Assembly: GCA_002773415.1 (NCBI GenBank)
Contig: PFBD01000020.1
Span: forward strand, 25,667 to 89,666
Direction: 5' to 3'
DNA length: 64,000 nt
From: Candidatus Harrisonbacteria bacterium CG10_big_fil_rev_8_21_14_0_10_49_15
GTDB lineage: Bacteria > Patescibacteriota > Minisyncoccia > UBA6257 > 1-14-0-10-44-23
Below, in pieces: positions 9,453 through 62,912 of this stretch (position 1 is its first letter; each line of letters starts with the position of its first letter). Below the pieces are notes generated by a model. It worked only from the letters and a program-made list of their open reading frames with translations, did not search any database and was not told the origin of the DNA. Both the position numbers and the translations under genes were made by a program.

Positions 9453-10494
9453 GTATAATGGAATAATGGAGAAGAAAGAAACTAGAAACTCGAATATAGA
9501 AACTGGAATAGCTGCCCGGGCTGCGATTTTGATTCTATTTTCTAGTTTTTATTTTCTAGTTTCTGCGCCTTTGGCGCATGCGCAGGAGTATGGTTTTTTG
9601 GAGCGGAATATTTGGTTTTCACAGGAGCTGCTTTTTGCCGGTGAGACAGTGCGGATCTACACAGTTGTTTTTAATGGTAGCGAAGAGGATGTTACCGGTA
9701 CTGTTGAGTTTTATGATCAGGCGGAGAAGCTCGGCGAAGCCAAGTTTTCTTTGGCAAAAGGAGAGCAGTTGCGCGATGTTTGGATAGATTGGTTGGCGAA
9801 AGAGGGCGAGCATGCAATTACCGCTCGCATAAATGGTGCTAGCTCAGCAATTTTGACTAAGGTCGTGGATGGCGATCGGGATGGTGATAAGATTGGCGAT
9901 AGGGAAGATCTGGATAATGATAATGATGGTATCTCTGATGCTCAAGAAAAAAAAGACGGCACAGATCCTTTTAAGGCGGATACAGATGGTGATGGTCTTA
10001 ACGACTTGGAAGATCCGGCACCACTTGTTTTTAATCTAAAAGAGGAAAAACAGGAACAAGTACAAAAAGAAGAAAAGCCGACTTTAAAAGATACGGCGGA
10101 GGTGGCAACTGCGAATGTTCTTGGGGTAATGGAGGGTTTTCGGGAGCGATACGAACAGGGGCTAGAAGATAAAAAACAGGAACTGCGGGGCGAGCTCGAT
10201 GCGTATAAAGAGGAGGATGCCTTGGCTCGGCAGGAGCAGTCAAATAGTCGCAATACTTCCGGTCAACGTCTTAATGAGGCGGCCGGAGAGGAGTTTGTGC
10301 GTTTGACTGACAGTGAAGATGGCCTGCCAAAGTTGTCCGGGGCGAGGATTGTTAAATTTTTGTATTACGGAGTTGTCTCTGTTGGATTGTTTATTTTTGA
10401 ACACAAGCCTGTGTTCTACGCGGTGCTGGGGTTGATATTCCTGAAGTTCATCTTTATTATCATCGGCAAATTTCGCAAGAAACGCTACGGGTAA
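9451..10494 (+). CDS. Secreted/membrane protein with thrombospondin-type-3-like Ca-binding Asp repeats and C-terminal TM helices
   Basis: Signal peptide, then DGDRDGDKIGDREDLDNDNDGISD..DTDGDGLNDLEDP, then C-terminal hydrophobic segments. Confidence 0.65.
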   Translation: MYNGIMEKKETRNSNIETGIAARAAILILFSSFYFLVSAPLAHAQEYGFLERNIWFSQELLFAGETVRIYTVVFNGSEEDVTGTVEFYDQAEKLGEAKFSLAKGEQLRDVWIDWLAKEGEHAITARINGASSAILTKVVDGDRDGDKIGDREDLDNDNDGISDAQEKKDGTDPFKADTDGDGLNDLEDPAPLVFNLKEEKQEQVQKEEKPTLKDTAEVATANVLGVMEGFRERYEQGLEDKKQELRGELDAYKEEDALARQEQSNSRNTSGQRLNEAAGEEFVRLTDSEDGLPKLSGARIVKFLYYGVVSVGLFIFEHKPVFYAVLGLIFLKFIFIIIGKFRKKRYG

Positions 10495-10560
10495 CATCAG
10501 ACGAATTACGAATTGGTTACGAATTTACGAATCAGGTCTTTTCCGCTACGCTAGAGCGAT

Positions 10561-11643
10561 ATGAACAGAGGGTTTTGGAGTGAATTAAAGAAGCCAATAA
10601 TGGTGCTGGCGCCGATGGCGAATGTCACGGATGCGGCTTTTCGGCGCATTATTGCCAAGTACGGTAAACCGGATGTTTTTTGGACAGAGTTTGTTTCGGT
10701 AGAGGGATTGTTGTCGGTAGGTCGGGAGAAGTTGCTGATAGATTTTTGGCATACAAAAGAGGAGAAACCGATTGTGGCGCAGATTTTCGGTGGGAAACCG
10801 GAGCAGTTTTACGAAGTGGCCAAGCTTTGCGTGGAGTTGGGTTTTGATGGGATTGATATCAATATGGGTTGCCCGGATAAGGGTGTAGAGAAAAGCGGCG
10901 GCGGCGCGGCTTTAATAAAAGATCCGGCGCGTGCGCAAGAGATAATTTTGGCGATTAAGGGCGGCGTGAGAGACGTGGGTAGTGCCATCCCTGTCTCGGT
11001 TAAAACTCGGCTGGGCTATAACAAAAATGAGCTGGAAACTTGGGTACAGGCGCTTTTAAAAGCTGAGCCGGCGGTGATAACCATGCACTTGCGCACGCGC
11101 AAAGAGATGAGCAAGGTTCCGGCGCACTGGGATCAGATGCGAACGATGGTGGAACTCGTTACACGTTATACGAATCGTGATACACGGCCATTGCTTTTTG
11201 GGAATGGTGATGTGATGAGCGTTGAGGAGGCGCGGATGAAAGTTGCGGAAACTGGCGCAGATGGAGTGATGCTTGGCAGGGCTATTTTTGGTAACCCCTG
11301 GTTATTCGCGAAAGATCCTTACTCCAATGTTCTTGAGAACATTGGAGTAAGTGAAAGGCTGCAAGTGATGGTAGAGCACACCAAGCTTTTTGAGGAGTTG
11401 TATGGATTGAATTCCTCCTTTTCTAAAGGAGGTGGCCGAAGGCCGGAGGATTTAAATCCCTCCCGGTTGCGCCGGACTCCCTTTACAAAAGGGAGAATTA
11501 AGCCGTTTGATCTTATGAAAAAGCACTATAAGGCGTATTGTAACGGGTTCGATGGCGCGAAAGAGTTGCGAGTGAAGTTAATGGAAGCGGAAACCGCGGC
11601 GGAGGTAGAGGAGTTGGTGAGCTTGTTTTTGAAAAAGAGCTAG
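10561..11643 (+). CDS. dus: tRNA-dihydrouridine synthase (Dus family) carrying an in-frame family-A element
   Basis: MVLAPMANVTDAAFRRI.., NMGCP, and the catalytic-region hallmarks. Insert NSSFSKGGGRRPEDLNPSRLRRTPFTKGRIKPF. Confidence 0.85.
   Translation: MNRGFWSELKKPIMVLAPMANVTDAAFRRIIAKYGKPDVFWTEFVSVEGLLSVGREKLLIDFWHTKEEKPIVAQIFGGKPEQFYEVAKLCVELGFDGIDINMGCPDKGVEKSGGGAALIKDPARAQEIILAIKGGVRDVGSAIPVSVKTRLGYNKNELETWVQALLKAEPAVITMHLRTRKEMSKVPAHWDQMRTMVELVTRYTNRDTRPLLFGNGDVMSVEEARMKVAETGADGVMLGRAIFGNPWLFAKDPYSNVLENIGVSERLQVMVEHTKLFEELYGLNSSFSKGGGRRPEDLNPSRLRRTPFTKGRIKPFDLMKKHYKAYCNGFDGAKELRVKLMEAETAAEVEELVSLFLKKS
11411..11498. repeat. Family-A element copy 3 (inside dus), module order B-C-A
   Basis: attcctccttttctaaaggaggtggccgaaggccggaggatttaaatccctcccggttgcgccggactccctttacaaaagggagaat. 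Confidence 0.8.
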
Positions 11644-15867: not shown

Positions 15868-15877
15868 ACGTACTAAC

Positions 15878-15909
15878 CTATTTCACAATTTGGTTAAATT
15901 GTGAAATAG
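15878..15909. promoter_or_regulatory. Perfect-armed 32-bp palindrome ctatttcacaatt-tggtta-aattgtgaaatag (putative operator), followed by a TATACT box
   Basis: 13-bp arms. A second copy lies downstream of the same regulator gene and a variant lies at 20602. Confidence 0.6.
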
Positions 15910-15923
15910 GGTATACTGGGATC

Positions 15924-16202: not shown

Positions 16203-16221
16203 TAATTTATTCTAGTTAAAC

Positions 16222-16253
16222 CTATTTCACAATTTAACCAAATTGTGAAATAG
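16222..16253. promoter_or_regulatory. Second copy (inverted orientation) of the 32-bp palindrome, downstream of the ArsR gene and upstream of the kinase gene
   Basis: ctatttcacaatttaaccaaattgtgaaatag. Confidence 0.6.
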
Positions 16254-16277
16254 GTTATGGTTTTTTTATGTTGTTTT

Positions 16278-19732: not shown

Positions 19733-20497
19733 TTAGTCGGCGCGCAGGATCTGCAGTTGCTCGCTCAGCGTCATCAGGAGGAAGAAGCTGGCGCTGACCT
19801 GTTCCAGGAACAGCTGGCCGAGCCCGTGGCCACGCAGTTCGGGCTGGGGATCTTCTGCGAGCCATGCTCCTCCCGGGGTGAGGACGTGTGTCTGCACGGC
19901 CTTGATTCGCTCGGGTGGAGCGACGAACTCTACCCGGTGGAAGTTGTTGCCATAGTGGTCGCGGTGGTTTTCCGCGGGTGGGCGGAGCCAGGCGGTGACA
20001 GCATTGCTCAGTTCGCCGCGGAAGGTCTTCTCGTCGTCGCGGATGTAGAAGTGGGCGGAGCGGCACTTCGCGTTCCTGGCCAGGAGCCAGAGCGTGTGGC
20101 CGGCCCTTAACTCTGCGGGCGGCGTCAGTGTCCTGGCTTGGGGGCCATGTTCAGATTTTGCCTGCTTGAACTGGGCGAGATAGTCCAGTAGCGCCAGCAT
20201 GGTGCCGCCGGCGAACTCGTTACTGAACTCGTCCGCGGCCTTGGTCTCGATATTGGCATCGAGGTGAGTGACGCTGTGACCGTCGGTCTCCAGTAGCGCG
20301 CGGATGACGCGACGGATTGGGCGCCAGCCGGGGCTTCGCGCGCAAAGCCGTATGATCTCTTCGCGAGCATCCTGGTTGTTGCCGTGGTCGGCGATGATCA
20401 GGACGGACCGCCGAGTGAGCCAGTCGTCAGACCAGCCTTTGCTGAGGTGATCTCCGAATTGTTCAACGGTGCGCCGCTTTTCCGAGTCTTGCATGTT
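19733..20497 (-). CDS. Hypothetical protein in a GC-rich islet. Contains an ..LIIADHGNN.. motif reminiscent of alkaline-phosphatase-superfamily metal sites (not assigned)
   Basis: Strong SD aaggaggactcaacATG at 20497. The track ORF starts further upstream at 20602, inside the palindrome. GC ~64%. Confidence 0.5.
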   Translation of the reverse strand, partial: NMQDSEKRRTVEQFGDHLSKGWSDDWLTRRSVLIIADHGNNQDAREEIIRLCARSPGWRPIRRVIRALLETDGHSVTHLDANIETKAADEFSNEFAGGTMLALLDYLAQFKQAKSEHGPQARTLTPPAELRAGHTLWLLARNAKCRSAHFYIRDDEKTFRGELSNAVTAWLRPPAENHRDHYGNNFHRVEFVAPPERIKAVQTHVLTPGGAWLAEDPQPELRGHGLGQLFLEQVSASFFLLMTLSEQLQILRAD

Positions 20498-20601
20498 GAG
20501 TCCTCCTTTCAAAGGACAGCGCCCCTTGCAGGGCTTGTTGTGCGGGGCAATGAGCCCCGGGCTGTCTGTAGCATGCCATGGGCTTTTGGCGTGTGTCAAC
20601 A

Positions 20602-20633
20602 CTATTTCGCAATTTCGCGAAATTGCGAAATAG
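20602..20633. promoter_or_regulatory. Variant 32-bp perfect palindrome ctatttcgcaatt-tcgcga-aattgcgaaatag next to a TTGACA (-35) for the minus-strand GC-rich gene
   Basis: Same outer half-site ctatttc.caatt as the ArsR-flanking palindromes at 15878 and 16222. Confidence 0.55.
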
Positions 20634-22097: not shown

Positions 22098-23771
22098 ATG
22101 TTGAAAGAAGATCTGCAAAAGATTATCAAGGGCGAGGTGAAAGATGATCCGGAGACGCTGAAAAAATATAGTCGGGACGCCAGTATTTTTGATATCAAAC
22201 CAAAGGCGGTTGTTTTCCCGCGGGATAGCGCGGATATTGGAGAACTTGTGCGTTATGTGAGTGAGCATAAGGAAGCGGAGAGGGACTTAAGTTTGACGGT
22301 GCGGAGCGGCGGTACGGATATGAGCGGCGGTCCGCTTTCGGAATCTCTTGTGCTTGATGTGACGGCGCATTTAAACAAGATCCACGAGGTAACGAATGAG
22401 TACGCGATTATGGAGCCGGGGGTGTATTATCGCGATCTGGATAAAGAGACGCGGCAGAGAGATGTTTTTATGCCGGCGTATCCGGCGAGCCGAGATATCG
22501 CGACTGTGGGTGGGATGACTGCGAATAACTCCGGTGGGGAAAAGACGCCGGCTTATGGAAAAGTTGAAAAGTTTGTGGAGGAGCTTTCCGTCGTTCTTTC
22601 AGATGGGAATGAGTATGTTATAAAGCCGCTTACAAAGGCGGAGCTGGACGCGAAGATGAAGCTGGAGAGTTTTGAAGGGAAGTTGTATCGGGATTTGTAT
22701 AAGTTGTTGACGGAAAATGCTGATCTGATAAAAAAAGCAAAGCCGAATGTATCAAAGAATTCCGCCGGGTATTATCTGTGGAATGTCGTAGGCGCCAATT
22801 TTGGCGCCGGAGATCCCGCCAAAGGCGGGATTGATGACAAATTCGATCTTACACAGTTAATAGTTGGATCACAGGGAACTCTGGGAATAATTACAAAGGT
22901 AAAGTTTCGTTTGGTCCGAGTGAAGCCGGTCTCTAAAATGGCGGTGATGTTTTTGCATAAGTTGGATCACTTGGGCGAGGCAATTTTGGATGTTTCTAAG
23001 CTTGAGCCGGAGAGCTTGGAGTCTTATGACGACAAGACATTGCGACTGGCAATTCGTTTTTTCATGGATATTGTCCGGATTTTGAAGCCGAAGAATGTGC
23101 TTGTGTTGGCTTGGAAGGTCTTGCCGGAGATACTGCATATTATTTTCGGGGGGATGCCGAAGCTGGTGGTGATGGCAGAGTTTACCGGCGAGAATGAGGC
23201 GGAGGTGGATGCTAAGTTGGCACAAGTTGTTGAGCACATGAAGAAGTTTAAGGTGCGGGTGCATATTACGACCAGCCAGGAAGAGGCAAATGAGTATTGG
23301 ACTATTCGGCGGGAAAGTTTTGGTTTGTTGCGAGCGAAGGTTACAAGTAAGCTGGCGGCGCCGTTTATTGACGACTTTTGCGTGCGCCCGGAGGTCCTGC
23401 CCGAGTTTTTGCCGAAATTAACCGTGATCTTGGAAAGAGCGAAGATCCGGTACGCGATTCAGGGGCATCCGGGAGACGGCAATTTTCATATCTTCCCGCT
23501 TTTGGACGTGAAAGATCCGGCGCAGAGGGCGTTGATACCAAAGTTATCTGATGAAGTATATTCGCTGGTTTTGGAATATAAGGGTTCTATTACAGCCGAG
23601 CATAATGATGGGCTTATCCGCACGCCTTACTTGGAAAAGATGTATGGTCCGGATGTGATTCGTTTGTTTGAGAAAACAAAGCTTATCTTTGATCCAAAGA
23701 ATATCTTTAATCCGGGCAAAAAGGTTTGGGGGAATTTGGCGTACGCGATGGCGCATATCAAAAGGGGTTAA
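22098..23771 (+). CDS. FAD-binding oxidoreductase (FAD_binding_4; GlcD/D-lactate dehydrogenase-like)
   Basis: RSGGTDMSGGPL.., the C-terminal FAD-oxidase domain, 557 aa. Confidence 0.75.
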   Translation: MLKEDLQKIIKGEVKDDPETLKKYSRDASIFDIKPKAVVFPRDSADIGELVRYVSEHKEAERDLSLTVRSGGTDMSGGPLSESLVLDVTAHLNKIHEVTNEYAIMEPGVYYRDLDKETRQRDVFMPAYPASRDIATVGGMTANNSGGEKTPAYGKVEKFVEELSVVLSDGNEYVIKPLTKAELDAKMKLESFEGKLYRDLYKLLTENADLIKKAKPNVSKNSAGYYLWNVVGANFGAGDPAKGGIDDKFDLTQLIVGSQGTLGIITKVKFRLVRVKPVSKMAVMFLHKLDHLGEAILDVSKLEPESLESYDDKTLRLAIRFFMDIVRILKPKNVLVLAWKVLPEILHIIFGGMPKLVVMAEFTGENEAEVDAKLAQVVEHMKKFKVRVHITTSQEEANEYWTIRRESFGLLRAKVTSKLAAPFIDDFCVRPEVLPEFLPKLTVILERAKIRYAIQGHPGDGNFHIFPLLDVKDPAQRALIPKLSDEVYSLVLEYKGSITAEHNDGLIRTPYLEKMYGPDVIRLFEKTKLIFDPKNIFNPGKKVWGNLAYAMAHIKRG

Positions 23772-23860
23772 TTTTCAATTTACGAATTTTCAATTTTCAA
23801 ACAATGTACTAATGAAGCAATGTTTTAAACATTAAGAAATTGAGAATTGGAAATTATTCA
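23772..23860. repeat. Intergenic repeat family C (ttttcaatttacgaattttcaattttcaaacaatg..aatgttttaaacatt..gaaattggaaatt)
   Basis: Near-identical copy at 46985-47115; partial copies at 2183-2205, 18848-18900 and 62836-62912. Confidence 0.7.
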
Positions 23861-37732: not shown

Positions 37733-38932
37733 ATGGCAGAAAAGCAAAAATTTGAGCGGACTAAGCCGCACGTTAACGTCGGGACTATTGGTCACGTTGA
37801 CCACGGCAAGAGTACGCTGACCGCTGCCATTACCCACGTTCTGCATAAGAAGGGGCTGGCGGCGAAAGAGGTGAGTGTTGACGACCTGGACAAGAGTCCG
37901 GAAGAAAAGGCTCGTGGTATCACGATTGCCTTGCACCACTCTGAGTATGAGTCGGAGAATCGGCATTACGCGCACATTGACGCGCCGGGTCACGCTGATT
38001 ACATCAAGAACATGATTTCCGGTGCCGCCCAGATGGATGGCGCGGTTTTGGTTATCTCTGCCGCGGACGGTCCGATGCCGCAGACTCGCGAGCACATTTT
38101 GCTTGCCAGGCAGGTGGGCGTGCCTTCGATTATTGTTTTCCTAAACAAGGTAGATATGGTGGATGACCCAGAGCTCATTGACTTAGTGGAAGCTGAGGTT
38201 CGTGAGTTGCTGAAGAAGTACGAGTATCCTGGTGACGAGACTCCGATTATCCGCGGAAGTGCTTTGAAGGCGCTGGAAGCCTCGACTGCTGAAGACGATG
38301 CAGCGAAGCCTATTATTGAGTTGGTGGCCGCGATGGATAGCTTTATTCCGGAGCCGGTTCGTGATATTGAAAAGCCGTTTGCGATGCCGGTGGAGGACAT
38401 CTTCTCCATTGATGGACGCGGTACGGTTGTGACCGGTAAGATTGAGCGTGGTATCATCAAAGTTAACGATGAAATCGAGATCGTTGGTCTGCGCGACACG
38501 CAGAAGACGACTATCACCGGTGTGGAGATGTTTAACAAGTTGATGGACGAGGCGCAGGCCGGTGACAACGTCGGTTTGCTGCTACGTGGTCTCAAGAAGG
38601 AAGACGTTGAGCGAGGGCAGGTGTTGGCTAAGCCGGGAACCATTACTCCGCACACGGAGTTTGAAGCTGAAGTGTACGTGTTGAGTAAGGAGGAAGGCGG
38701 TCGGCACACTCCGTTCTTTAAGGGTTACAAGCCGCAGTTCTATATTGGTACGACTGACGTGACCGGCGAGGTTATATTGCCGGATGGAACTGAAATGGTC
38801 ATTCCGGGCGACACGGTGAACATCAATGTGAAGTTAATCGCGCCGATTGCGCTTGAAGAAAAACAGCGCTTTGCTATCCGTGAAGGTGGTAAGACTGTTG
38901 GTGCCGGTGTGGTAATCAAGATCACGAAATAG
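37733..38932 (+). CDS. tuf: Elongation factor Tu
   Basis: [21 protein letters not shown]. Confidence 0.95.
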
Positions 38933-38934
38933 TT

Positions 38935-39264
38935 ATGGCAACCAAGAAGAAGGAGACACAAGATCGCCTGCGCCTGCGCATCAAGGCTTACGACAGTAAG
39001 TTGATTGATACCAGTTGCAAGCAGATAGTAGAAACGGCTAAGCGGCACGACGCTGACGTTGTTGGTCCAACCCCGCTACCGACAGAGTTTCACAAGTACA
39101 CTGTCAACCGTTCTACTTTCATTGACAAAGATTCTCGGGAGCAGTTTGAGATGCGTGTGCATAAGCGATTGATCGACATCTTGAACCCGAATCACGGGAT
39201 CATTGAATCTCTCTCCTCTTTGAACTTGCCGGCTGGAGTAGACATCGAGATCAAGATGCTGTAA
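38935..39264 (+). CDS. rpsJ: 30S ribosomal protein S10
   Basis: 109 aa, conserved S10. Confidence 0.95.
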
Positions 39265-39288
39265 AGAGCAGATTGAGATGAAGCTAGC

Positions 39289-39312
39289 AAAAGACCCCGA
39301 AAGGGGTCTTTT
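39289..39312. terminator. Strong rho-independent terminator directly after rpsJ (aaaagaccccgaaaggggtctttt)
   Basis: Unusual position: in most bacteria rplC follows rpsJ directly in one operon. Confidence 0.7.
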
Positions 39313-39332
39313 GCGTATGGAAGAGGGTGTAT

Positions 39333-39360
39333 TGACAAATTAGTATAAATATGCATAATA
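39333..39360 (+). promoter_or_regulatory. Sigma-70-like promoter (TTGACA ... CATAATA) driving the inserted HTH gene
   Basis: Read directly. Confidence 0.5.
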
Positions 39361-39442
39361 AAGAAAGCTCGCTACTTGTCCAGCTGTGCTGGCGTAGACG
39401 GGAACGGTTCTTTGATTTGGGCTTAGGCCCAAGGAGCTCGGA

Positions 39443-39919
39443 ATGTCAGAGATTCTGCTCAAGGTCCCCAACGTCCGTCCCGGGTCCCTTGCCAAGCTGG
39501 CGGCTTTTCTCGAGAGTACCCAGAATAGGGTCTCTGAGCGGGACAAGAGCCCAATGGCTACGCTCGTGGTGGCGAAGCGGTACAGTGGCAACGACAACCG
39601 CTACGGCCTGACGCTCAAGGTGGAGTTCTGGTGCGATTCGGAGATCGGCGAGTACGTTTCCATCCCCGCAGCGCAGCTCCAGCAGATCTGGGACGCGCTC
39701 GGGCTGTATCCGAACCAGGGTACGGTGACGAGCGCTCCCGCGCAGATCGGCGATGGCACGCTTAATGTCGCTGTGGAGGCGGCCGAGAAGGCGGCGATCC
39801 GTGCGGCACTGGAGCAGACCGGTGGACACAAGGACGAGGCCGCAGCGTTCCTCGGAATCTCCCGGAAGATCCTGTGGGAGAAGTGCAAGGTCTACGAGAT
39901 CGATTTCGGGATCGAGTAG
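39443..39919 (+). CDS. GC-rich inserted gene encoding a protein with a C-terminal Fis-type HTH (HTH_8-like)
   Basis: SD aaggagctcggaATG. C-terminus AAIRAALEQTGGHKDEAAAFLGISRKILWEKCKVYEI. Inserted between rpsJ and rplC. Confidence 0.65.
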   Translation: MSEILLKVPNVRPGSLAKLAAFLESTQNRVSERDKSPMATLVVAKRYSGNDNRYGLTLKVEFWCDSEIGEYVSIPAAQLQQIWDALGLYPNQGTVTSAPAQIGDGTLNVAVEAAEKAAIRAALEQTGGHKDEAAAFLGISRKILWEKCKVYEIDFGIE

Positions 39920-40035
39920 TGCGAAGTACCCCATCGCTGACCGGGGAGAGAATAGGTCAGCAGCCACGCTGAAGCCCGCCAAAGGTGGGTGAAGCGGACG
40001 GGCTCGACAGTAGGAACACCCTACAGTCGAGCTCG

Positions 40036-40134
40036 TTTTTTGTTATTACGCGTGTAATAACATATGTAAGGACATTGTTACGTAGCATGTTACGTAACAC
40101 TTCTGATACTGTTAAAACATGAATGTTTTAACAG
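40036..40134. promoter_or_regulatory. Cluster of three perfect palindromes: gttattacgcgtgtaataac; tandem TTACGTA(g/a) palindromic boxes; ctgttaaaacat-ga-atgttttaacag
   Basis: Read directly. They lie downstream of the HTH gene terminator (39993-40034). Confidence 0.55.
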
Positions 40135-40184
40135 TTTTTTTGGGCCAAAGGGCTGCATTTGAACCGTTCTTGTCGGGGGCTTTA

Positions 40185-40253
40185 CCCCCACACCAATCGG
40201 CCAGGACTGGCTTTGCCAGCTGGGCCGCACCTGCTGGCCGATTGGTGTGGGGG
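40185..40253. repeat. Long hairpin with a 20-bp perfect stem (cccccacaccaatcggccag / ctggccgattggtgtggggg) and a structured loop
   Basis: Read directly. Immediately followed by a TTTACA-17-TATACT promoter for rplC. Confidence 0.6.
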
Positions 40254-40282
40254 TTTACAAATATGAAGAGCTTGTGTATACT
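40254..40282 (+). promoter_or_regulatory. Promoter (TTTACA-17 nt-TATACT) re-initiating the rplC..operon after the insertion
   Basis: Read directly. Confidence 0.5.
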
Positions 40283-40411
40283 AACCGGCATAGTTAGGTA
40301 AAGGTCTTGTGGAGCATGTTCTTCGCCGACCTGCAAAAACTAGTAATCAGCGTCTTATTGGAAGCTGAGCTAGGCTCAGTTTTTTAATTACTGGATTTCC
40401 GAATAAAAGCT

Positions 40412-40861
40412 ATGACAACCCTGAAGGGCACAAAACTAAAGATGACGAGTCTTTTCAAAGACGGACGCGCCTATGGTGTTACTCCGGTATCTTTGGATAC
40501 CAATGCTGATCTTTCCGTTCTGGAAGCAGGCTCTCTTATTCGAATTAGCGGCATTAGTAAGGGTAAGGGGTTTGCAGGCGTAGTAAAGCGACACAATTTT
40601 AGAGGGGGCCCGGCAACACACGGTCAGAAAGATAAGCACCGTAGCCCGGGCTCTATTGGTTCTACGGCGCCGCAACGCGTTTTGCCGGGTCGCCGGATGG
40701 CCGGCCGTATGGGTAATGAGCGAGTGACTATTAAGAATCTTCCGCTTGTTTCCGTTGATATTGAAAATAAGATCCTGATGCTGAACGGTTCAGTACCGGG
40801 TATTACTGGCCGAGAAGTCGAGATCGAATTACCGGTGGAGTTAGTAGAAGCTGGAAATTAG
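40412..40861 (+). CDS. rplC: 50S ribosomal protein L3 (short, 149 aa)
   Basis: L3 core KGKGFAGVVKRHNF.GGPATHG. Confidence 0.9.
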   Translation: MTTLKGTKLKMTSLFKDGRAYGVTPVSLDTNADLSVLEAGSLIRISGISKGKGFAGVVKRHNFRGGPATHGQKDKHRSPGSIGSTAPQRVLPGRRMAGRMGNERVTIKNLPLVSVDIENKILMLNGSVPGITGREVEIELPVELVEAGN

Positions 40862-41808: not shown

Positions 41809-41909
41809 CGAGCTTTTTAGCTGATTAGCTTCTTAGGAAAGTAGCCGCACAGAGAAAATCGAAACCCTAATAAGCTAAACAGCTAATAAGCTAAACAGCT
41901 AATAAGCAT

Positions 41910-43683: not shown

Positions 43684-44397
43684 ATGGGACAGAAGATAAG
43701 ACCAGATTCTTTCCGTCTTGGGATCACGCAGGGGTGGACCTCCCGCTGGTTCCCGAAGAGGGGATATAAAAACAAGCTTGAAGAGGATGTGCTCATCCGT
43801 CGGGTTATTAATGATCGCATTAAACTGGCGGGTATCGTTAGAATAGAGATAGAGCGCAACGCGAACAATCAGTACCGCTTGTTTATTAAGGCGGCTAAAC
43901 CCGGTATTATCATCGGACGAGGCGGTGCCGGTATTGAGGATCTGACAAAGATACTGACTAAAGAGTTGCAGGCTTTGCTCCGAAGCCGGGGAGTTACGGA
44001 TCCGAACGTGGCTATTAATTTGAATATTGAAGAGCTGAAGCGAACTGAAATAGCGTCAACTTATGTCGCGCAGACCATTGCTTGGGAGTTGGAGAAGCGT
44101 ATGCCGTTTCGGCGGACCATAAAGAAAACTCTGGAAGGAGTGCTTCAGAATCGGGATGTAAAAGGCGCGAAGATCCAGGTAGCCGGCCGTTTGGACGGAG
44201 GCGAGATAGCTCGCAGCGAATTTTTGTCTAAGGGTAAGTTGCCGCTACAGACCTTGCGCGCGAATATTGATTACGGTCGGGCAACTGCTTACACGACCTA
44301 CGGTACCATCGGGATCAAAGTTTGGGTTTATAAAGGTGATATTTTTTCCAAGGATGTTAAGGACGAAGCGACTGGTAAGTTTAAACAAGCCGTCTAG
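43684..44397 (+). CDS. rpsC: 30S ribosomal protein S3
   Basis: KH domain and S3 C-terminal domain. Confidence 0.95.
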   Translation: MGQKIRPDSFRLGITQGWTSRWFPKRGYKNKLEEDVLIRRVINDRIKLAGIVRIEIERNANNQYRLFIKAAKPGIIIGRGGAGIEDLTKILTKELQALLRSRGVTDPNVAINLNIEELKRTEIASTYVAQTIAWELEKRMPFRRTIKKTLEGVLQNRDVKGAKIQVAGRLDGGEIARSEFLSKGKLPLQTLRANIDYGRATAYTTYGTIGIKVWVYKGDIFSKDVKDEATGKFKQAV

Positions 44398-44506
44398 TCA
44401 CGAATCACTAATAAGCATTAATCAAACTAATCTAATACAAAAAATCTGAAAGCTATTCGTCTGATTCGTGATTATCCGTGATTAGTGAAAAATTTTACAA
44501 AGTAAA

Positions 44507-44917
44507 ATGTTAACTCCAAAGAAAGTAAAACATCGTAAGTGGCATAAGGGTCGTAACCGCGATCGCAAGTTTAGTTTTCGTGGAACGACTTTGAGCTATG
44601 GCAGTTGCGGTATCAAGGCAACTACTTCTTCTTGGGTTAACTCTCGTCAAATAGAGTCTGCGCGAAGAACGATTACCGGTTTTTTGAAACGTGAAGGAAA
44701 AGTGTTTATCCGTATCTTCCCGGATAAGCCGGTTACAAAGCGGCCGCCGGAGGTGACCATGGGTGGCGGTAAGGGTGCCGTTGATCACTATGTTTTCCCG
44801 GTGAAGCCAGGTAGGATTCTTTTTGAAGTTGATGGAGTGAAAGAGGACAAGGCAAAAGAGGCCTTGCGCCGAGCAAGTCATAAATTACCGGTAAAGACTC
44901 GATTTGTCAGCCGCTAG
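44507..44917 (+). CDS. rplP: 50S ribosomal protein L16
   Basis: Conserved L16. Confidence 0.95.
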   Translation: MLTPKKVKHRKWHKGRNRDRKFSFRGTTLSYGSCGIKATTSSWVNSRQIESARRTITGFLKREGKVFIRIFPDKPVTKRPPEVTMGGGKGAVDHYVFPVKPGRILFEVDGVKEDKAKEALRRASHKLPVKTRFVSR

Positions 44918-44940: not shown

Positions 44941-45192
44941 ATGAAACGAAAAGAGGTTCAAAAAATCAAAGAAAAGTCTGTCAGCGAGTTGCAGAAAGAT
45001 GCGGCTTCTTTGAAGGTGAAGACTGGTGAGATGCGCCGGGATTTGGTTGTTGGTAAGCTGAAGAATCCGCGTTTGATTGGGCAGACCAGAAAAGATATTG
45101 CTCGCTTGCTGACTGTTATGAATGAGAAGAAAATGATGATAGAAAGCAATAATACAAAGGTCACGAAGAATGATGTCACGAATCACGAATAA
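44941..45192 (+). CDS. rpmC: 50S ribosomal protein L29
   Basis: Conserved L29. Confidence 0.85.
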   Translation: MKRKEVQKIKEKSVSELQKDAASLKVKTGEMRRDLVVGKLKNPRLIGQTRKDIARLLTVMNEKKMMIESNNTKVTKNDVTNHE

Positions 45193-45285
45193 TCACGAAT
45201 CAAACTAATCTAGTTAAAAATTCTGAGAGCTATTCGTGCGATTGGTGATGATTAGTGATTAGTGAAAACTTTTACGAAGTAAAAT

Positions 45286-45594
45286 ATGAAAAGAACTCTT
45301 CAAGGAACAATTGTTTCCGACAAAATGAATAAAACAGCGGTGGTTGCTGTGGCAACTAAGCAAAAGCACCCGAAGTATCTTAAGTACTACACGGTGACTC
45401 GGCGTTTTAAGGCTCATAATGAGGGCGACCAGTATAAAGTCGGTCAGGTTGTTGTTATTGAAGAAGCTCGACCAATGTCTAAAGATAAGCGGTGGGTTGT
45501 CACCGGTTTGGTTGAAGGGGCGCCGCAGCCGGAATTGTCTCCGAATAACGAATTACAAACCGAATCAACGAATGTAGAAAAAGATATTGGATAA
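45286..45594 (+). CDS. rpsQ: 30S ribosomal protein S17
   Basis: Conserved S17. Confidence 0.9.
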   Translation: MKRTLQGTIVSDKMNKTAVVAVATKQKHPKYLKYYTVTRRFKAHNEGDQYKVGQVVVIEEARPMSKDKRWVVTGLVEGAPQPELSPNNELQTESTNVEKDIG

Positions 45595-45639
45595 GGATTC
45601 GCTGATTCGTTATCCTATTCGATATTCGCAAACAAAAAT

Positions 45640-46984: not shown

Positions 46985-47115
46985 AGTAATGATCAATCAA
47001 TTTTCAATTTACGAATTTTCAATTTTCAAACAATGAATCAATGAATAAATGTTTTAAACATTGAGAAATTAAATCATTAAAAATTGTTTAGAAATTGAAA
47101 ATTGGAAATTAGACA
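46985..47115. repeat. Intergenic repeat family C, long copy (between rpsN and rpsH)
   Basis: Matches 23772-23860 over >60 nt. Confidence 0.7.
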
Positions 47116-47697: not shown

Positions 47698-48273
47698 ATG
47701 TCAAAGATCGGAAGAAAACCAATTGAAATCCTTGAGGGCGTAACCGTCTCTATTGAAGACGGTAAGTTTAAGGTTGCCGGTAAGCTGGGTACTTTAGAGA
47801 CGCCTATTTTAGCCGGAGTAACCGCGGAGCAGTCTGACCCCGAAAAATCGCAGAGCGATCACGGGGCAAGTGGCACAATAGTACTCAAGATTAGTGACGA
47901 TAATAAACAAACTCGGGCTAACTGGGGTACGACAGCGGCTTTACTCCGCAATGCCATTACTGGAGTTTCAGAGGGCTTTAAAAAAGATTTAGAGATTCAG
48001 GGTGTTGGTTTTCGAGCCTCCATGGAAGGGAAGACCCTTGTGATGGGCCTTGGCTTTAGCCATCCGGTTCGCTACGAGACTCCGGAGGGAGTAACGATTG
48101 CGGTTGAAAAGAACGTTATTATTGTGACCGGTATTGATAGTGCGGTGGTGGGGCAGACAGCGGCTGAAATCAGGAAGTTTAAGAAGCCGGAGCCATACCA
48201 GGGTAAAGGGATCCGCTATGTTGGCGAGCATGTACGTCGTAAACAAGGCAAGAAGGTTGCAGGCTCCGCGTAG
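47698..48273 (+). CDS. rplF: 50S ribosomal protein L6
   Basis: Conserved L6. Confidence 0.95.
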   Translation: MSKIGRKPIEILEGVTVSIEDGKFKVAGKLGTLETPILAGVTAEQSDPEKSQSDHGASGTIVLKISDDNKQTRANWGTTAALLRNAITGVSEGFKKDLEIQGVGFRASMEGKTLVMGLGFSHPVRYETPEGVTIAVEKNVIIVTGIDSAVVGQTAAEIRKFKKPEPYQGKGIRYVGEHVRRKQGKKVAGSA

Positions 48274-48318
48274 CATCAGACGAATTACGAATCCATTACG
48301 AATTTACGAATAAAAGGT

Positions 48319-49350: not shown

Positions 49351-49770
49351 ATGCAACTGCACGAACTAAAACCAAAAAATAAAAGGATTGCCAAGCAGAC
49401 CAGGATCGGGCGTGGTGGTAAGCGTGGTACCACTTCCGGTCGCGGTCAGAAGGGACAGCGGGCTCGTTCCGGTCACCGGATTCGTCCGGCGGTGCGGGAT
49501 CTGTTGCAGCGCTTGCCAAAGTTGCGTGGATACAGCAACAACCCGAAATCCGCCTCTTTCCAGGTTCTTAATGTTGGCGATTTGAATCGTTTGGCGGGAT
49601 CAGAGATCTCTTTAAAGACTTTAGCCGAGGCTAGTTTGATTCGTGGAAAAAAGCCGGTGAAGATCTTGGGTTCGGGCGTTATCGACCGAAAGATGACTGT
49701 TACAGGTATTGTCGTTTCAAAGACAGCCAAGGAGAAGATTGAGGCCGCCGGCGGTACAGTCTCCGAATAA
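49351..49770 (+). CDS. rplO: 50S ribosomal protein L15
   Basis: Conserved L15. It follows rpsE by 8 nt, so there is no L30 gene. Confidence 0.9.
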   Translation: MQLHELKPKNKRIAKQTRIGRGGKRGTTSGRGQKGQRARSGHRIRPAVRDLLQRLPKLRGYSNNPKSASFQVLNVGDLNRLAGSEISLKTLAEASLIRGKKPVKILGSGVIDRKMTVTGIVVSKTAKEKIEAAGGTVSE

Positions 49771-49858
49771 CGAATTATAAATCGAATCAGCGAATGTAAA
49801 ATAAAGTGATGGATAAGGATTCGATGATTCGTTAATCTATTCGATATTCGCAAACAAT

Positions 49859-53510: not shown

Positions 53511-53912
53511 TTGGTAGCGATAAGCCGGATTCTGTTACCCAGCCCCACTTTTTCAATGAATTTTTACCATTCATTGAAAAAGTGGGGCTGGGTGACAGCG
53601 ATTTATCTAGGTCAGTAATTACTTACTGACTCAAGCGACTCTTCCACGATCTTGCGATCGGGACGCGGTCTTGCACCCCGTAAGAATTTAGCCGTTTCAC
53701 CCCAGCTTTTCTATCTCTATAGCTGGATTAGACCTTTTGGCCTGAGATTAGGTCTTCTTTGGCTTTCGCCTCAGACGTCACTGCTCGCATCTCTTGGTTG
53801 CCCATGGCGGCTGTTAGCCGCTACGTTTTTGACCCCGGCAAAAGCCGGAGAAATGGAGTCCGGACTTTCCTCCCCTTGGTTTTATCCAAAGAGTAGCTGT
53901 CCTGCTACCGAA
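53511..53912 (-). ncRNA. rnpB: RNase P RNA (bacterial type A), ~400 nt
   Basis: Minus strand contains GGGAGGAAAGUCCGGACUCC (P4 5' strand), GGGGUGAAACGGC, and ACAGAAUCCGGCUUAUCGCUACC (P4 3' strand) pairing with the 5' GGUAGC (P1). It overlaps the spurious ORF 53652..53993. Confidence 0.8.
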
Positions 53913-54140
53913 GGCAATTATACCAGCATTTTTATTTTTTGCAATTGTCTATATTTGACCACATGTGCAATAGCCTGGGCACGGATTTCTTGACACGTTT
54001 GCCGACTTATTAAGAACACATGAAGAAGGCATTGACAAGACCACTAGACAATGCTAGGTTGATTGTTGCCTGGTTTTCTGGGCGTTTCTGATTTTTTTCT
54101 TTGGTTTTTCCGCCCTGGTGGCGGAGGAAGGAGCGGTGCG

Positions 54141-55073
54141 ATGAGCACTCGCTTTCTCGCCGCCTTGATGGCGGTTCTGGCTCTGGCTGCGATTAGCGTG
54201 GCTGGGCAGAGGATTCGGGCGGAGATCGAACTCCGGAATCCGAACGGGGCGGACTTGATCTTCAAGGTCGTCGTCGTGAACGCAGAGGATGGAAATGCCA
54301 AGCGAAAGCTGGCCAAGACTCGCATTCGCGGCGAGGGCGAGACTGAGCTCCGTCTTCGGGGCCGCGACTACTCCGAGAATTCTCGGCTTGTCGCCAAGGT
54401 TTCGGTGCGGCGCCGTGGTAAGTACTGGGATGCAGAGCTCGGGGAGATGCGTCGGCGGAACTGGTGGCCGGTCGCTGAGGCGGCGGTCCACGCTACCAAC
54501 GAAACCGGATCTGAGAGGATCCGATTCGTGATGGACATCCCTCTGCTTACGCAGATGCCGTTTGCCGATTTCGACGGCGACGGCGTGGCGGACGAAGACG
54601 ATGCCTGCCCGACTGAAGCCGGACCGGCCTCGAACCAGGGCTGCCCGGTGGACGATCCGGAGCCGAATCCGGCTCGTTCCGGCATCGTCTTGCACAACAT
54701 GACGACCGCCGGCACCATCTGGAACACGCCTGACGGGAGCAATCCCGCACGGTGTTTCCAGATAACGGAGGCCGGACACCCCGGTGTTCGGTGGACCTTC
54801 CGGCTGACCTCCGTCTCGGAGTTGCTGCCGGAGGACCTGACCTCGACGGATTCTCGTCGATGGCCGGTCCTGTTCAGCGAACAATCCCTTCGGGGGGCGA
54901 TGGGGGCGACGTTCCCGTCGTCCACTTCGTACCGGGAGATTTTCCGGCCGGAGAGCCCTCTTCTCTGGGAGTTCCAGGCCTTCGGCACCGATGTCGGTGA
55001 CGGGTGGAGCAACCTGGACTTCCACTGGGAGGAAGACACAGAGAAGTGGCTGCTGCACATCTACGTGCGGTAG
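54141..55073 (+). CDS. GC-rich secreted protein with a thrombospondin-type-3/OmpA-like Ca-binding motif
   Basis: SD ggaggaaggag, signal peptide MSTRFLAALMAVLALAAISVAG, then DFDGDGVADEDDACP. About 65% GC. Confidence 0.6.
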   Translation: MSTRFLAALMAVLALAAISVAGQRIRAEIELRNPNGADLIFKVVVVNAEDGNAKRKLAKTRIRGEGETELRLRGRDYSENSRLVAKVSVRRRGKYWDAELGEMRRRNWWPVAEAAVHATNETGSERIRFVMDIPLLTQMPFADFDGDGVADEDDACPTEAGPASNQGCPVDDPEPNPARSGIVLHNMTTAGTIWNTPDGSNPARCFQITEAGHPGVRWTFRLTSVSELLPEDLTSTDSRRWPVLFSEQSLRGAMGATFPSSTSYREIFRPESPLLWEFQAFGTDVGDGWSNLDFHWEEDTEKWLLHIYVR

Positions 55074-55160
55074 CCAGAGGTCTGCTTGAGCCTTGGCTCG
55101 GGCGGACAGCATGAGAGGGTCGGCAAGTTGCTCACGCGCTTGCCGGCCCCCTCGGAAACA

Positions 55161-59651: not shown

Positions 59652-59762
59652 TATTAGCTTATTAGCTTATTAGCTTCTTAGCTGTTTAGGGAAATGGGTC
59701 ACGGCCCAAAACAGCCTGTTTAGCCGCGGCAGTAGCTAATCAGCTAGCCTTCTTTTCTTTGT

Positions 59763-62834: not shown

Positions 62835-62912
62835 GGAGAATTTTCAATTTACATTTTTCAATTCCTGCCTGCCGGCAGGCAGGTTCAAACAATTTTCGAA
62901 TTTCCTATTTTT

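Follow-up and report, generated by a model that had tools for sequence, protein, structure and literature searches.

A compositionally foreign helix-turn-helix gene at the rpsJ-rplC junction of a Candidatus Harrisonbacteria genome

The HTH gene and its transcription unit

We analysed a 64,000-nt stretch of Candidatus Harrisonbacteria bacterium CG10_big_fil_rev_8_21_14_0_10_49_15 (contig PFBD01000020.1, positions 25,667 to 89,666; hereafter the window), in which a gene for a helix-turn-helix (HTH) protein lies between the ribosomal protein genes rpsJ and rplC. The gene order is rpsL, rpsG, fusA (35432-37552), tuf, rpsJ, an interval of 1147 nt, rplC, rplD, rplW and the rest of the cluster. On the plus strand, tuf occupies 37733-38932 in the list of open reading frames (ORFs) and rpsJ 38935-39264 (Pfam Ribosomal_S10, E=5.5e-33); with just 2 nt between the end of tuf and the beginning of rpsJ, the two are taken as one unit, with a predicted promoter at 37659-37686. 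On the same strand rplC (40412-40861, from the ORF list and domain search) heads the unit L3-L4-L23-L2-S19 and onwards.

The HTH gene has expression signals of its own, all on the plus strand. A sigma-70-type promoter, TTGACA-16-CATAAT (39332-39359), agrees with the consensus at 11 of 12 positions, a Shine-Dalgarno sequence AAGGAG (39431-39436) stands 6 nt 5' of the ATG at 39443, and the ORF of 158 aa (39443-39919) is followed by a predicted intrinsic terminator (39998-40041), in which a hairpin (39998-40036; -28.8 kcal/mol, z=-6.0) precedes T6. The terminator arms are 17 nt long with two mismatched positions (88% complementary) and enclose a 5-nt loop. Promoters and terminators are assigned throughout by consensus match or thermodynamic prediction, and it is from these that we infer their activity. 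The original prediction for this DNA had described here a promoter, an ORF, terminators, repeats, a hairpin and a second promoter, and each of them is present within 1-2 nt of where it had been placed.

The GC content at third codon positions (GC3) of the HTH ORF is 0.81, against 0.54±0.05 (range 0.43-0.63) in 30 host genes, which puts it more than 5 standard deviations (SD) above them, and GC along the ORF is 0.59-0.65 compared with about 0.49 for the window. Seven contigs from several samples carry the insert at 99-100% identity, and it is fixed within the species. Taken together, the data support a self-contained, compositionally foreign transcription unit; we regard the gene as foreign because its GC3 is atypical, its homologue is rare and located elsewhere, and the closest relatives of the host are without it.

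The protein has a C-terminal HTH_8 domain of the Fis/NtrC type (PF02954, residues 111-149; E=1e-11, 44.8 bits against a Pfam cutoff of 22), and with this score above the gathering threshold it belongs to the HTH_8 proteins. Its sole other Pfam match, to DUF134 over the same C-terminal region, is sub-threshold (15.9 bits against a cutoff of 27). The N-terminal residues, about 100 in number, match no Pfam, NCBIfam, PHROG or PADLOC family and are predicted to follow the order beta-alpha-beta-beta-alpha-beta, making up a domain of unknown family. Sensor domains of the ACT-like or ferredoxin-fold type fused to an HTH are defined by a fold of that order with a ligand site. The N-terminal domain here is probably ferredoxin-like and would serve for dimerisation or ligand binding. 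We consider the protein a small regulator that joins a novel N-terminal domain to a C-terminal Fis/NtrC-type HTH, and a new, very rare member of HTH_8.

Two better known protein types were considered and rejected. Sigma-54 enhancer-binding proteins are defined by a central AAA+ Sigma54_activat domain with a GAFTGA loop; unlike these and the NtrC family, the window protein has neither the AAA+ sigma-54-activator domain nor a receiver domain, it is 158 aa long, and NCBIfam equivalogs match just its last 50 or so residues, far under their cutoffs. Fis measures about 98 aa, bears a beta-hairpin arm at its N terminus and forms a four-helix dimer. Against cutoffs of 122 and 99 bits, the NCBIfam models for it reach 18.2 and 21.1 on the window protein, whose N-terminal 100 aa are unrelated.

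The full-length homologue and the invariant leader

A search for homologues, one of the checks suggested with the original prediction, yielded a single full-length relative at an unrelated locus. Word-indexed searches of 5.8 billion proteins, queried with the window protein and with a profile of the window protein and its homologue P0002, returned as family members a truncated copy of the window protein and P0002 only. When 1.84 billion cluster representatives were searched exhaustively with HMMER, 166 matched, of which P0002 alone was full-length (residues 3-154, 46% identity, E=6e-24) and all others covered only the HTH. The window protein and P0002 have conserved columns in both domains, and their recognition helices are nearly identical (ISRKxLWEKxK). 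The P0002 gene is found on a 35-kb contig (L162) resembling those of the candidate phyla radiation (CPR), which carries DUF5671, DprA, TopA, ParB and FtsX/ABC genes. It lies there outside any ribosomal operon, downstream of a tRNA-Ser and a tRNA 3' fragment, within a unit of 878 nt bracketed by 33-nt direct repeats (9825-9857 and 10703-10735); no integrase adjoins it on L162, and its GC3 is 0.85 against 0.64±0.06 for the L162 host.

Just upstream of P0002, at L162 9531-9815, a tRNA-like 5' half (GGAGGGGTGGCAGAG...) and a matching 3' end (...GTTCGAATCTCACCCCCTCCGCCA) stand about 200 nt apart, and the interval between them contains an intact tRNA-Ser within an extended 17-bp helix. The two halves may be what is left of nested att sites, or may belong to a tRNA that is disrupted or contains an intron.

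The two loci also agree in promoter and leader. The block CTCGCTACTTGTCCAGCTGTGCTGGCGTAGACG, at 39368-39400 on the plus strand of the window, is 100% identical to L162 9928-9960, all 33 positions agreeing in spite of differing promoter spacers and a protein identity of just 46%; both the -35 and -10 hexamers of the HTH-gene promoter are conserved upstream of the P0002 gene. The block begins 8 nt (window) or 7 nt (L162) past the -10, approximately at the predicted transcription start, and has no second copy in the window. In both loci it can form the same imperfect stem-loop, CUCG/CUAC/CCAGC-UGU-GCUGG/GUAG/CGRG, with a pair at the stem base that is U-A in one and U-G in the other, and a second small hairpin, of differing sequence, abuts the Shine-Dalgarno sequence in each. 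Because the block is perfectly conserved while overlapping positions +1 to +33, we infer that it is a cis-regulatory element, which would be either an autoregulatory operator or a 5' RNA element for the HTH protein, and it makes a better operator candidate than the inverted repeats downstream of the gene. Such invariance would indicate strong purifying selection on the unit. Two other uses of the leader were rejected: a sigma-54 promoter, as the GG-N10-GC spacing does not occur in the sequence, and an upstream ORF (TTG, 15-16 codons, in both loci), which is incidental, the conservation being at the nucleotide level and including synonymous positions.

We compared the insert with known kinds of mobile DNA. 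Neither its DNA nor its protein has any match among phages, plasmids or viral contigs, which rules against an origin from any of these; within the window no part of it has a paralogue or repeat copy, and no tRNA or transfer-messenger RNA is present as an integration target. Integron cassettes are promoterless ORFs with an attC site (an imperfect RYYYAAC...GTTRRRY hairpin) near intI or in a cassette array; the window gene has its own 11/12 promoter, the inverted repeats do not show the attC cores in the order that such a site needs, and there is no recurrence in the window. Insertion sequences and miniature inverted-repeat transposable elements are marked by terminal inverted repeats, a target-site duplication and multiple copies, the former also by a transposase; the insert has no significant direct repeat in its flanks, is single copy in the window and has no transposase domain. 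Elements that integrate at tRNA genes have an integrase and att direct repeats overlapping the tRNA 3' end; on L162 a tRNA-Ser, a tRNA 3' fragment and the 33-nt repeats are present and no integrase is adjacent, and the window has neither tRNA nor repeats. The nearest likeness is to small genomic islets, in that a single accessory gene of foreign composition occupies different loci in two genomes, and the L162 copy, with its tRNA neighbours and 33-nt direct repeats, resembles tRNA-adjacent islets in particular. Unlike islets and integrative elements, the unit has no integrase or transposase nearby, and the window copy has no direct repeats or tRNA.

The rpsJ-rplC junction in other genomes

The original prediction started from the premise that rpsJ and rplC are contiguous in nearly all bacteria, and this fails for the CPR. 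Among 130 loci with both genes the median gap is 117 nt, and 12 loci exceed 600 nt. Gaps above 600 nt (875-3545 nt) were found in 5 of 19 CPR-labelled genomes, in no genome labelled non-CPR and in one unlabelled 'uncultured bacterium' (L006); their cargo is unrelated and of host-like GC, with a kinase-like protein, a Hint-domain protein and membrane or secreted proteins. Unrelated DNA of 0.7-3.5 kb lies at the junction in L005/L093, L006, L010, L011, L031/L130, L058, L086, L103, L140 and L141, which amounts to about a quarter of the CPR genomes sampled and to none labelled non-CPR. Most of these gaps hold unrelated ORFs, and those of L103 and L140 have no ORF of at least 70 aa.

The closest relatives by S10 identity (72-75%) are L082, L085 and L089, and the HTH gene was not found in the rpsJ-rplC spacer of any of them. 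In L089 a bidirectional-type terminator comes after rpsJ, and some 140 nt further on a promoter (TTGACA-16-TATACT, 11/12), then a 130-nt leader ending in a hairpin, T6 and AATT, and the rplC ATG. The L085 spacer has a promoter (11/12) and a small ORF, and the 71-nt spacer of L082 a hairpin with T4. At L085 3330-3560, a degenerate duplicate of the rpsJ 3' end follows rpsJ, then an ORF of about 59 aa, and then the rplC promoter.

The same frame surrounds the HTH gene in the window. On its left, 3' of rpsJ on the plus strand, GCAAAAGACCCC-GAAA-GGGGTCTTTTGC (39287-39314) forms a hairpin with a perfect 12-bp stem (-22.9 kcal/mol, z=-5.7), likely a bidirectional-type intrinsic terminator that would end the tuf-rpsJ unit; the terminator scan did not list it because its GC core has only 4 T after it. 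L089 has a hairpin at the equivalent position. On the right, the plus-strand promoter TTTACA-17-TATACT (40254-40282, 10/12) precedes rplC with a leader of about 130 nt (40283-40411), and a hairpin with T6 at 40361-40385, ending 26 nt 5' of the ATG, is a candidate attenuator. Window and L089 share the TATACT -10, the 130-nt leader length and the hairpin-T6-AATT ending (window 40361-40390).

This arrangement of hairpin, U-run and AATT recurs in L089, L082 and many CPR loci. A hairpin and T-run ending within 35 nt of the rplC start was counted in 7 of the 22 loci labelled CPR and in 2 of the 45 others; the labels of the latter two are doubtful, since the upstream region of L021 is nearly identical to that of the CPR-labelled L023, and L013 has the same layout. 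The pre-rplC hairpin could be a CPR attenuator of the rplC operon or a ribosomal protein leader. A hairpin and U-run 0-35 nt from the start codon was noted more broadly in L002, L006, L013, L021-L023, L039, L040, L058, L063, L082, L086, L087, L089, L103, L106, L109 and L112, among others. Within the window, the pre-rplC module resembles that before rplF; the promoter block T(T/G)ACAAATATGAA is common to both, and in the block GCTCAGTTTTnnAATTACT 17 of 19 positions match between them, above all 1000 shuffles. The rplC leaders of the window and L089 do not align in sequence, and no consensus structure common to the two was found. Rfam gave no match at gathering score in the whole window, hence no known ribosomal protein leader, and over 39200-40500 only sub-threshold matches at chance level, such as microRNA models on a long hairpin upstream of the rplC promoter.

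The leader of the E. coli S10 operon acts through L4-mediated attenuation. As with that and other ribosomal protein leaders, L3-L4-L23-L2 in the window is preceded by a promoter and about 130 nt of leader, in which a hairpin and U-run just upstream of the first gene resemble a terminator; unlike the E. coli leader, that of the window precedes rplC and not rpsJ, has no Rfam match, and would have a protein ligand only by hypothesis. This likeness concerns the native frame around the insert and not the foreign gene. For Archaeoglobi, too, a candidate L4 leader has been proposed that lies 5' of rplC (PMC7247131).

The explanation we favour, with a probability of roughly 0.6, is that a foreign single-gene unit has lodged in a pre-existing gap between the tuf-rpsJ terminator and the rplC promoter, and that no operon was split. 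A horizontally acquired unit of promoter, invariant leader, ORF and terminator would have entered this gap, a position where insertion would cost little. Its HTH product would act on the 33-nt block at its own transcription start, either as a DNA operator or through the 5' RNA stem-loop, and so regulate itself, while the rplC genes would be transcribed from their native promoter and a leader with the attenuator-like hairpin typical of the clade. In the clade as a whole, rpsJ appears to belong to the tuf unit, and the L3-L4-L23 unit to have its own promoter and attenuator-like leader. What had been described as a cassette splitting the S10 operon is thus retained as a foreign, insulated unit and dropped as a split, the break being already there in relatives without the gene. 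The promoter that was said to restart transcription at rplC is present, and it and the insulation look native because the relatives without the gene show a terminator after rpsJ, a promoter before rplC and a hairpin in the leader.

Several points weigh against this explanation. The window insert has no recombinase, no target-site duplication and no flanking repeat (target-site or att repeats around it are not significant, with an alignment score of 15 against a shuffle mean of 15.7), and for this reason the mode and boundaries of insertion are undefined. An empty-site allele of the same species was not recovered. Every promoter and terminator call is a consensus match, and the structure model of the protein is of low confidence (pLDDT, the predicted local distance difference test score, 56). 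In folding energy the leader stem-loop does not stand out (z=-1.2 and -2.5), and its two sequences allow essentially no test of covariation. The relatives are distant, their spacers cannot be aligned with that of the window (no homology to L089 is detectable that would pin the insertion point), and the frame is called native on the strength of shared architecture. Finally, the contig L168 (660 nt) is 99.5% identical to the window downstream but departs from it to the left of 40361, a point within the leader proposed as native. The 29 nt that differ hold an ATTCG-type hairpin resembling the spacer repeats that vary between strains in this genome; we read the divergence as a probable local repeat insertion, which leaves the right boundary of the insert uncertain.

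Inverted repeats, hairpins and alternative explanations

Between the terminator of the HTH gene and the rplC promoter lie three inverted repeats: 40041-40062 (9-nt arms, 4-nt spacer), 40076-40099 (9-nt arms, 6-nt spacer) and 40108-40135 (13-nt arms, 2-nt spacer), the last followed by T7, so that the array runs to 40142; with its T7 it qualifies as a terminator in the scan. They had been announced as three perfect palindromes. Three perfect repeats are indeed there, as inverted repeats with non-palindromic spacers of 2-6 nt. All fit TGTTA-N12-14-TAACA, and their starts are 35 and 34 nt apart, counting the third from its TGTTA at 40110. The three are real, non-random and species-specific.

A 71-nt hairpin follows at 40184-40254, with a perfect 21-bp stem (40184-40204 and 40234-40254), a 29-nt loop, -53.6 kcal/mol and z=-5.8; it had been predicted as 69 nt with a 20-bp stem, and is slightly longer in both respects. 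Like the repeats it is real, non-random and specific to this species, and it ends with its 3' arm against the -35 of the rplC promoter. The whole spacer 39920-40411 folds far better than shuffles (z=-9). A minus-strand ORF of 74 aa (40112-40336), called by the JGI (Joint Genome Institute), spans the hairpin and has no Pfam match; we treated it as spurious. Every near-consensus promoter of the ribosomal cluster is in an intergenic spacer on the plus strand: one each precedes rpsL, tuf, the HTH gene, rplC and rplF, and at four of the five (rpsL, tuf, rplC and rplF) a strong hairpin is directly upstream of the -35 or overlaps it.

The original prediction took the repeats for operators of the HTH dimer and the hairpin for an att-like or structured-RNA remnant of integration. 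In its favour, the repeats share their TGTTA and TAACA ends, are regularly spaced at 34-35 nt and follow directly after the gene, three of them within 95 nt against an expectation of 0.32 for 64 kb, and the 21-bp perfect stem is striking. The recurrence scan proposed along with it was run, and the motif occurs nowhere else in the window and in none of 200 other loci, so that no regulon emerges; it is absent as well from the 20 kb locus of P0002 (L162) in spite of the near-identical recognition helix, and it is the 33-nt leader that recurs there instead. The hairpin, for its part, is single copy in the window and has no partner, flanking repeat or integrase or other recombinase, nor is there a viral, plasmid or phage match, and it is not clearly att-like because long perfect hairpins abutting promoters are common in this genome, similar ones preceding other internal promoters. 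We consider this model unlikely, if the best placed of the alternatives. Repeats and hairpin most likely provide extra transcriptional insulation, or a structural spacer, between insert and rplC promoter; they may also be protein-binding sites for the HTH regulator or a host factor.

It is somewhat less probable still that the foreign regulator has been wired into the control of ribosomal proteins, binding upstream of the rplC promoter and modulating the L3-L4-L23 unit. Its sites would be the inverted repeats or else the loop of the 21-bp hairpin, where a CCAGCTG occurs in a sequence similar to the leader core: CTTGTCCAGCTGTGC in the leader and CTTTGCCAGCTGGGC in the loop match at 12 of 15 positions, these sites are 40-210 nt upstream of the -35, and the gene is fixed here in all recovered contigs. 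Chance pairs that match as well as 12/15 are, however, numerous in the same output, P0002 is not near ribosomal genes and has no CCAGCTG near its downstream promoter, and the relatives run the same rplC promoter and leader architecture without the gene.

On a par with that proposal we place a neutral passenger, that is, a recently acquired, functionless orphan on its way to decay, with the hairpins as unrelated spacer elements of the host. The extreme rarity of the family (two members) and the abundance of strain-variable hairpin repeats in the spacers of the ribosomal genes agree with it. The ORF is nevertheless intact, with a near-consensus promoter and a strong Shine-Dalgarno sequence, and the conserved columns in both domains at 46% identity and the leader invariant over 33 nt argue against it.

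More doubtful again is the notion that promoter, invariant leader and orphan two-domain regulator make up a novel type of minimal mobile unit without a recombinase, circulating in the CPR at terminator-promoter and tRNA-adjacent sites and recruited by way of the repeats and hairpin to control of L3-L4-L23. Least probable, and largely refuted, is a gene ancestral in the lineage whose high GC reflects its own constraints: its fixation in all contigs of the species from several samples, and the genes of host-like GC that CPR genomes often hold at this junction, are in keeping with ancestry, but its GC3 is more than 5 SD over the host, the same gene with host-like composition, which the original prediction had asked to be sought at this site in relatives, is missing from L082, L085 and L089, and the sole homologue is tRNA-adjacent, flanked by direct repeats and atypical in GC3 there too.

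If the favoured picture of a foreign unit in a native terminator-promoter gap holds, the classical S10 operon in the CPR appears to begin at rplC, with rpsJ attached to tuf, and the rpsJ/rplC boundary would be a recurrent, tolerated landing site for accessory genes, a matter of relevance where ribosomal protein synteny serves binning or phylogeny. It would also point to a candidate rplC leader or attenuator in the CPR, and to a very rare regulator family of two known members that, with its perfectly conserved leader, would offer a compact, testable pair of protein and nucleic acid. The gene would then represent clear, datable gene flow from a higher-GC source into a reduced CPR genome.

Some further observations concern the host and the rest of the window. 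The best matches of tuf and L3 are metagenome-assembled genomes of Patescibacteria, and the host has no close sequenced relative (top L3 identity 57-64%). The genes for S5 and L15 are direct neighbours, the L30 gene being missing from between them as is typical of the CPR, and on these grounds the host is a CPR bacterium. The rplC product is unusually short, 149 aa in the window and 148-149 aa when the relative L082 (4001-4447) is included; L3 elsewhere in the CPR, as in most bacteria, has some 200-210 aa, and the short form lacks about 55 residues from its interior. Two window ORFs, 54054-55112 and 19733-20602, have a GC3 of 0.74-0.76 against 0.54 for the host and no significant above-threshold Pfam domain, and are possibly further foreign genes.

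The spacers of the ribosomal cluster are filled with dispersed hairpin-forming repeats of 40-110 nt, built from ACGAAT/ATTCGT- and TAATCA-type units (37563-37647, 44397-44508, 45175-45285, 45522-45635, 49744-49857, 23770-23841, 46999-47070, 10484-10532, 48263-48311, 41865-41907 and 59652-59691). They vary by strain, with extra units in the rplD-rplW spacer of L165 and a difference left of 40361 in L168, and the relative L085 has similar units before rplC. Perfect AT-rich palindromes of 32-40 nt that share CTATTTC...GAAATAG are paired around genes at 15877-15910, 16219-16256, 20602-20633, 31604-31637 and 31937-31976 and may serve as terminators or operators; at 53532-53598 there is also a hairpin whose arms are 30 nt long. 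The 20-nt perfect palindrome CCTGCCTGCCGGCAGGCAGG is present at 62864-62883 of the window and at 9546-9565 of L162, as well as in 35 IMG/VR viral-contig stretches (L169-L203), sometimes three or four times per contig, and may be either a palindromic element of wide distribution or no more than a simple-sequence hairpin that keeps recurring.

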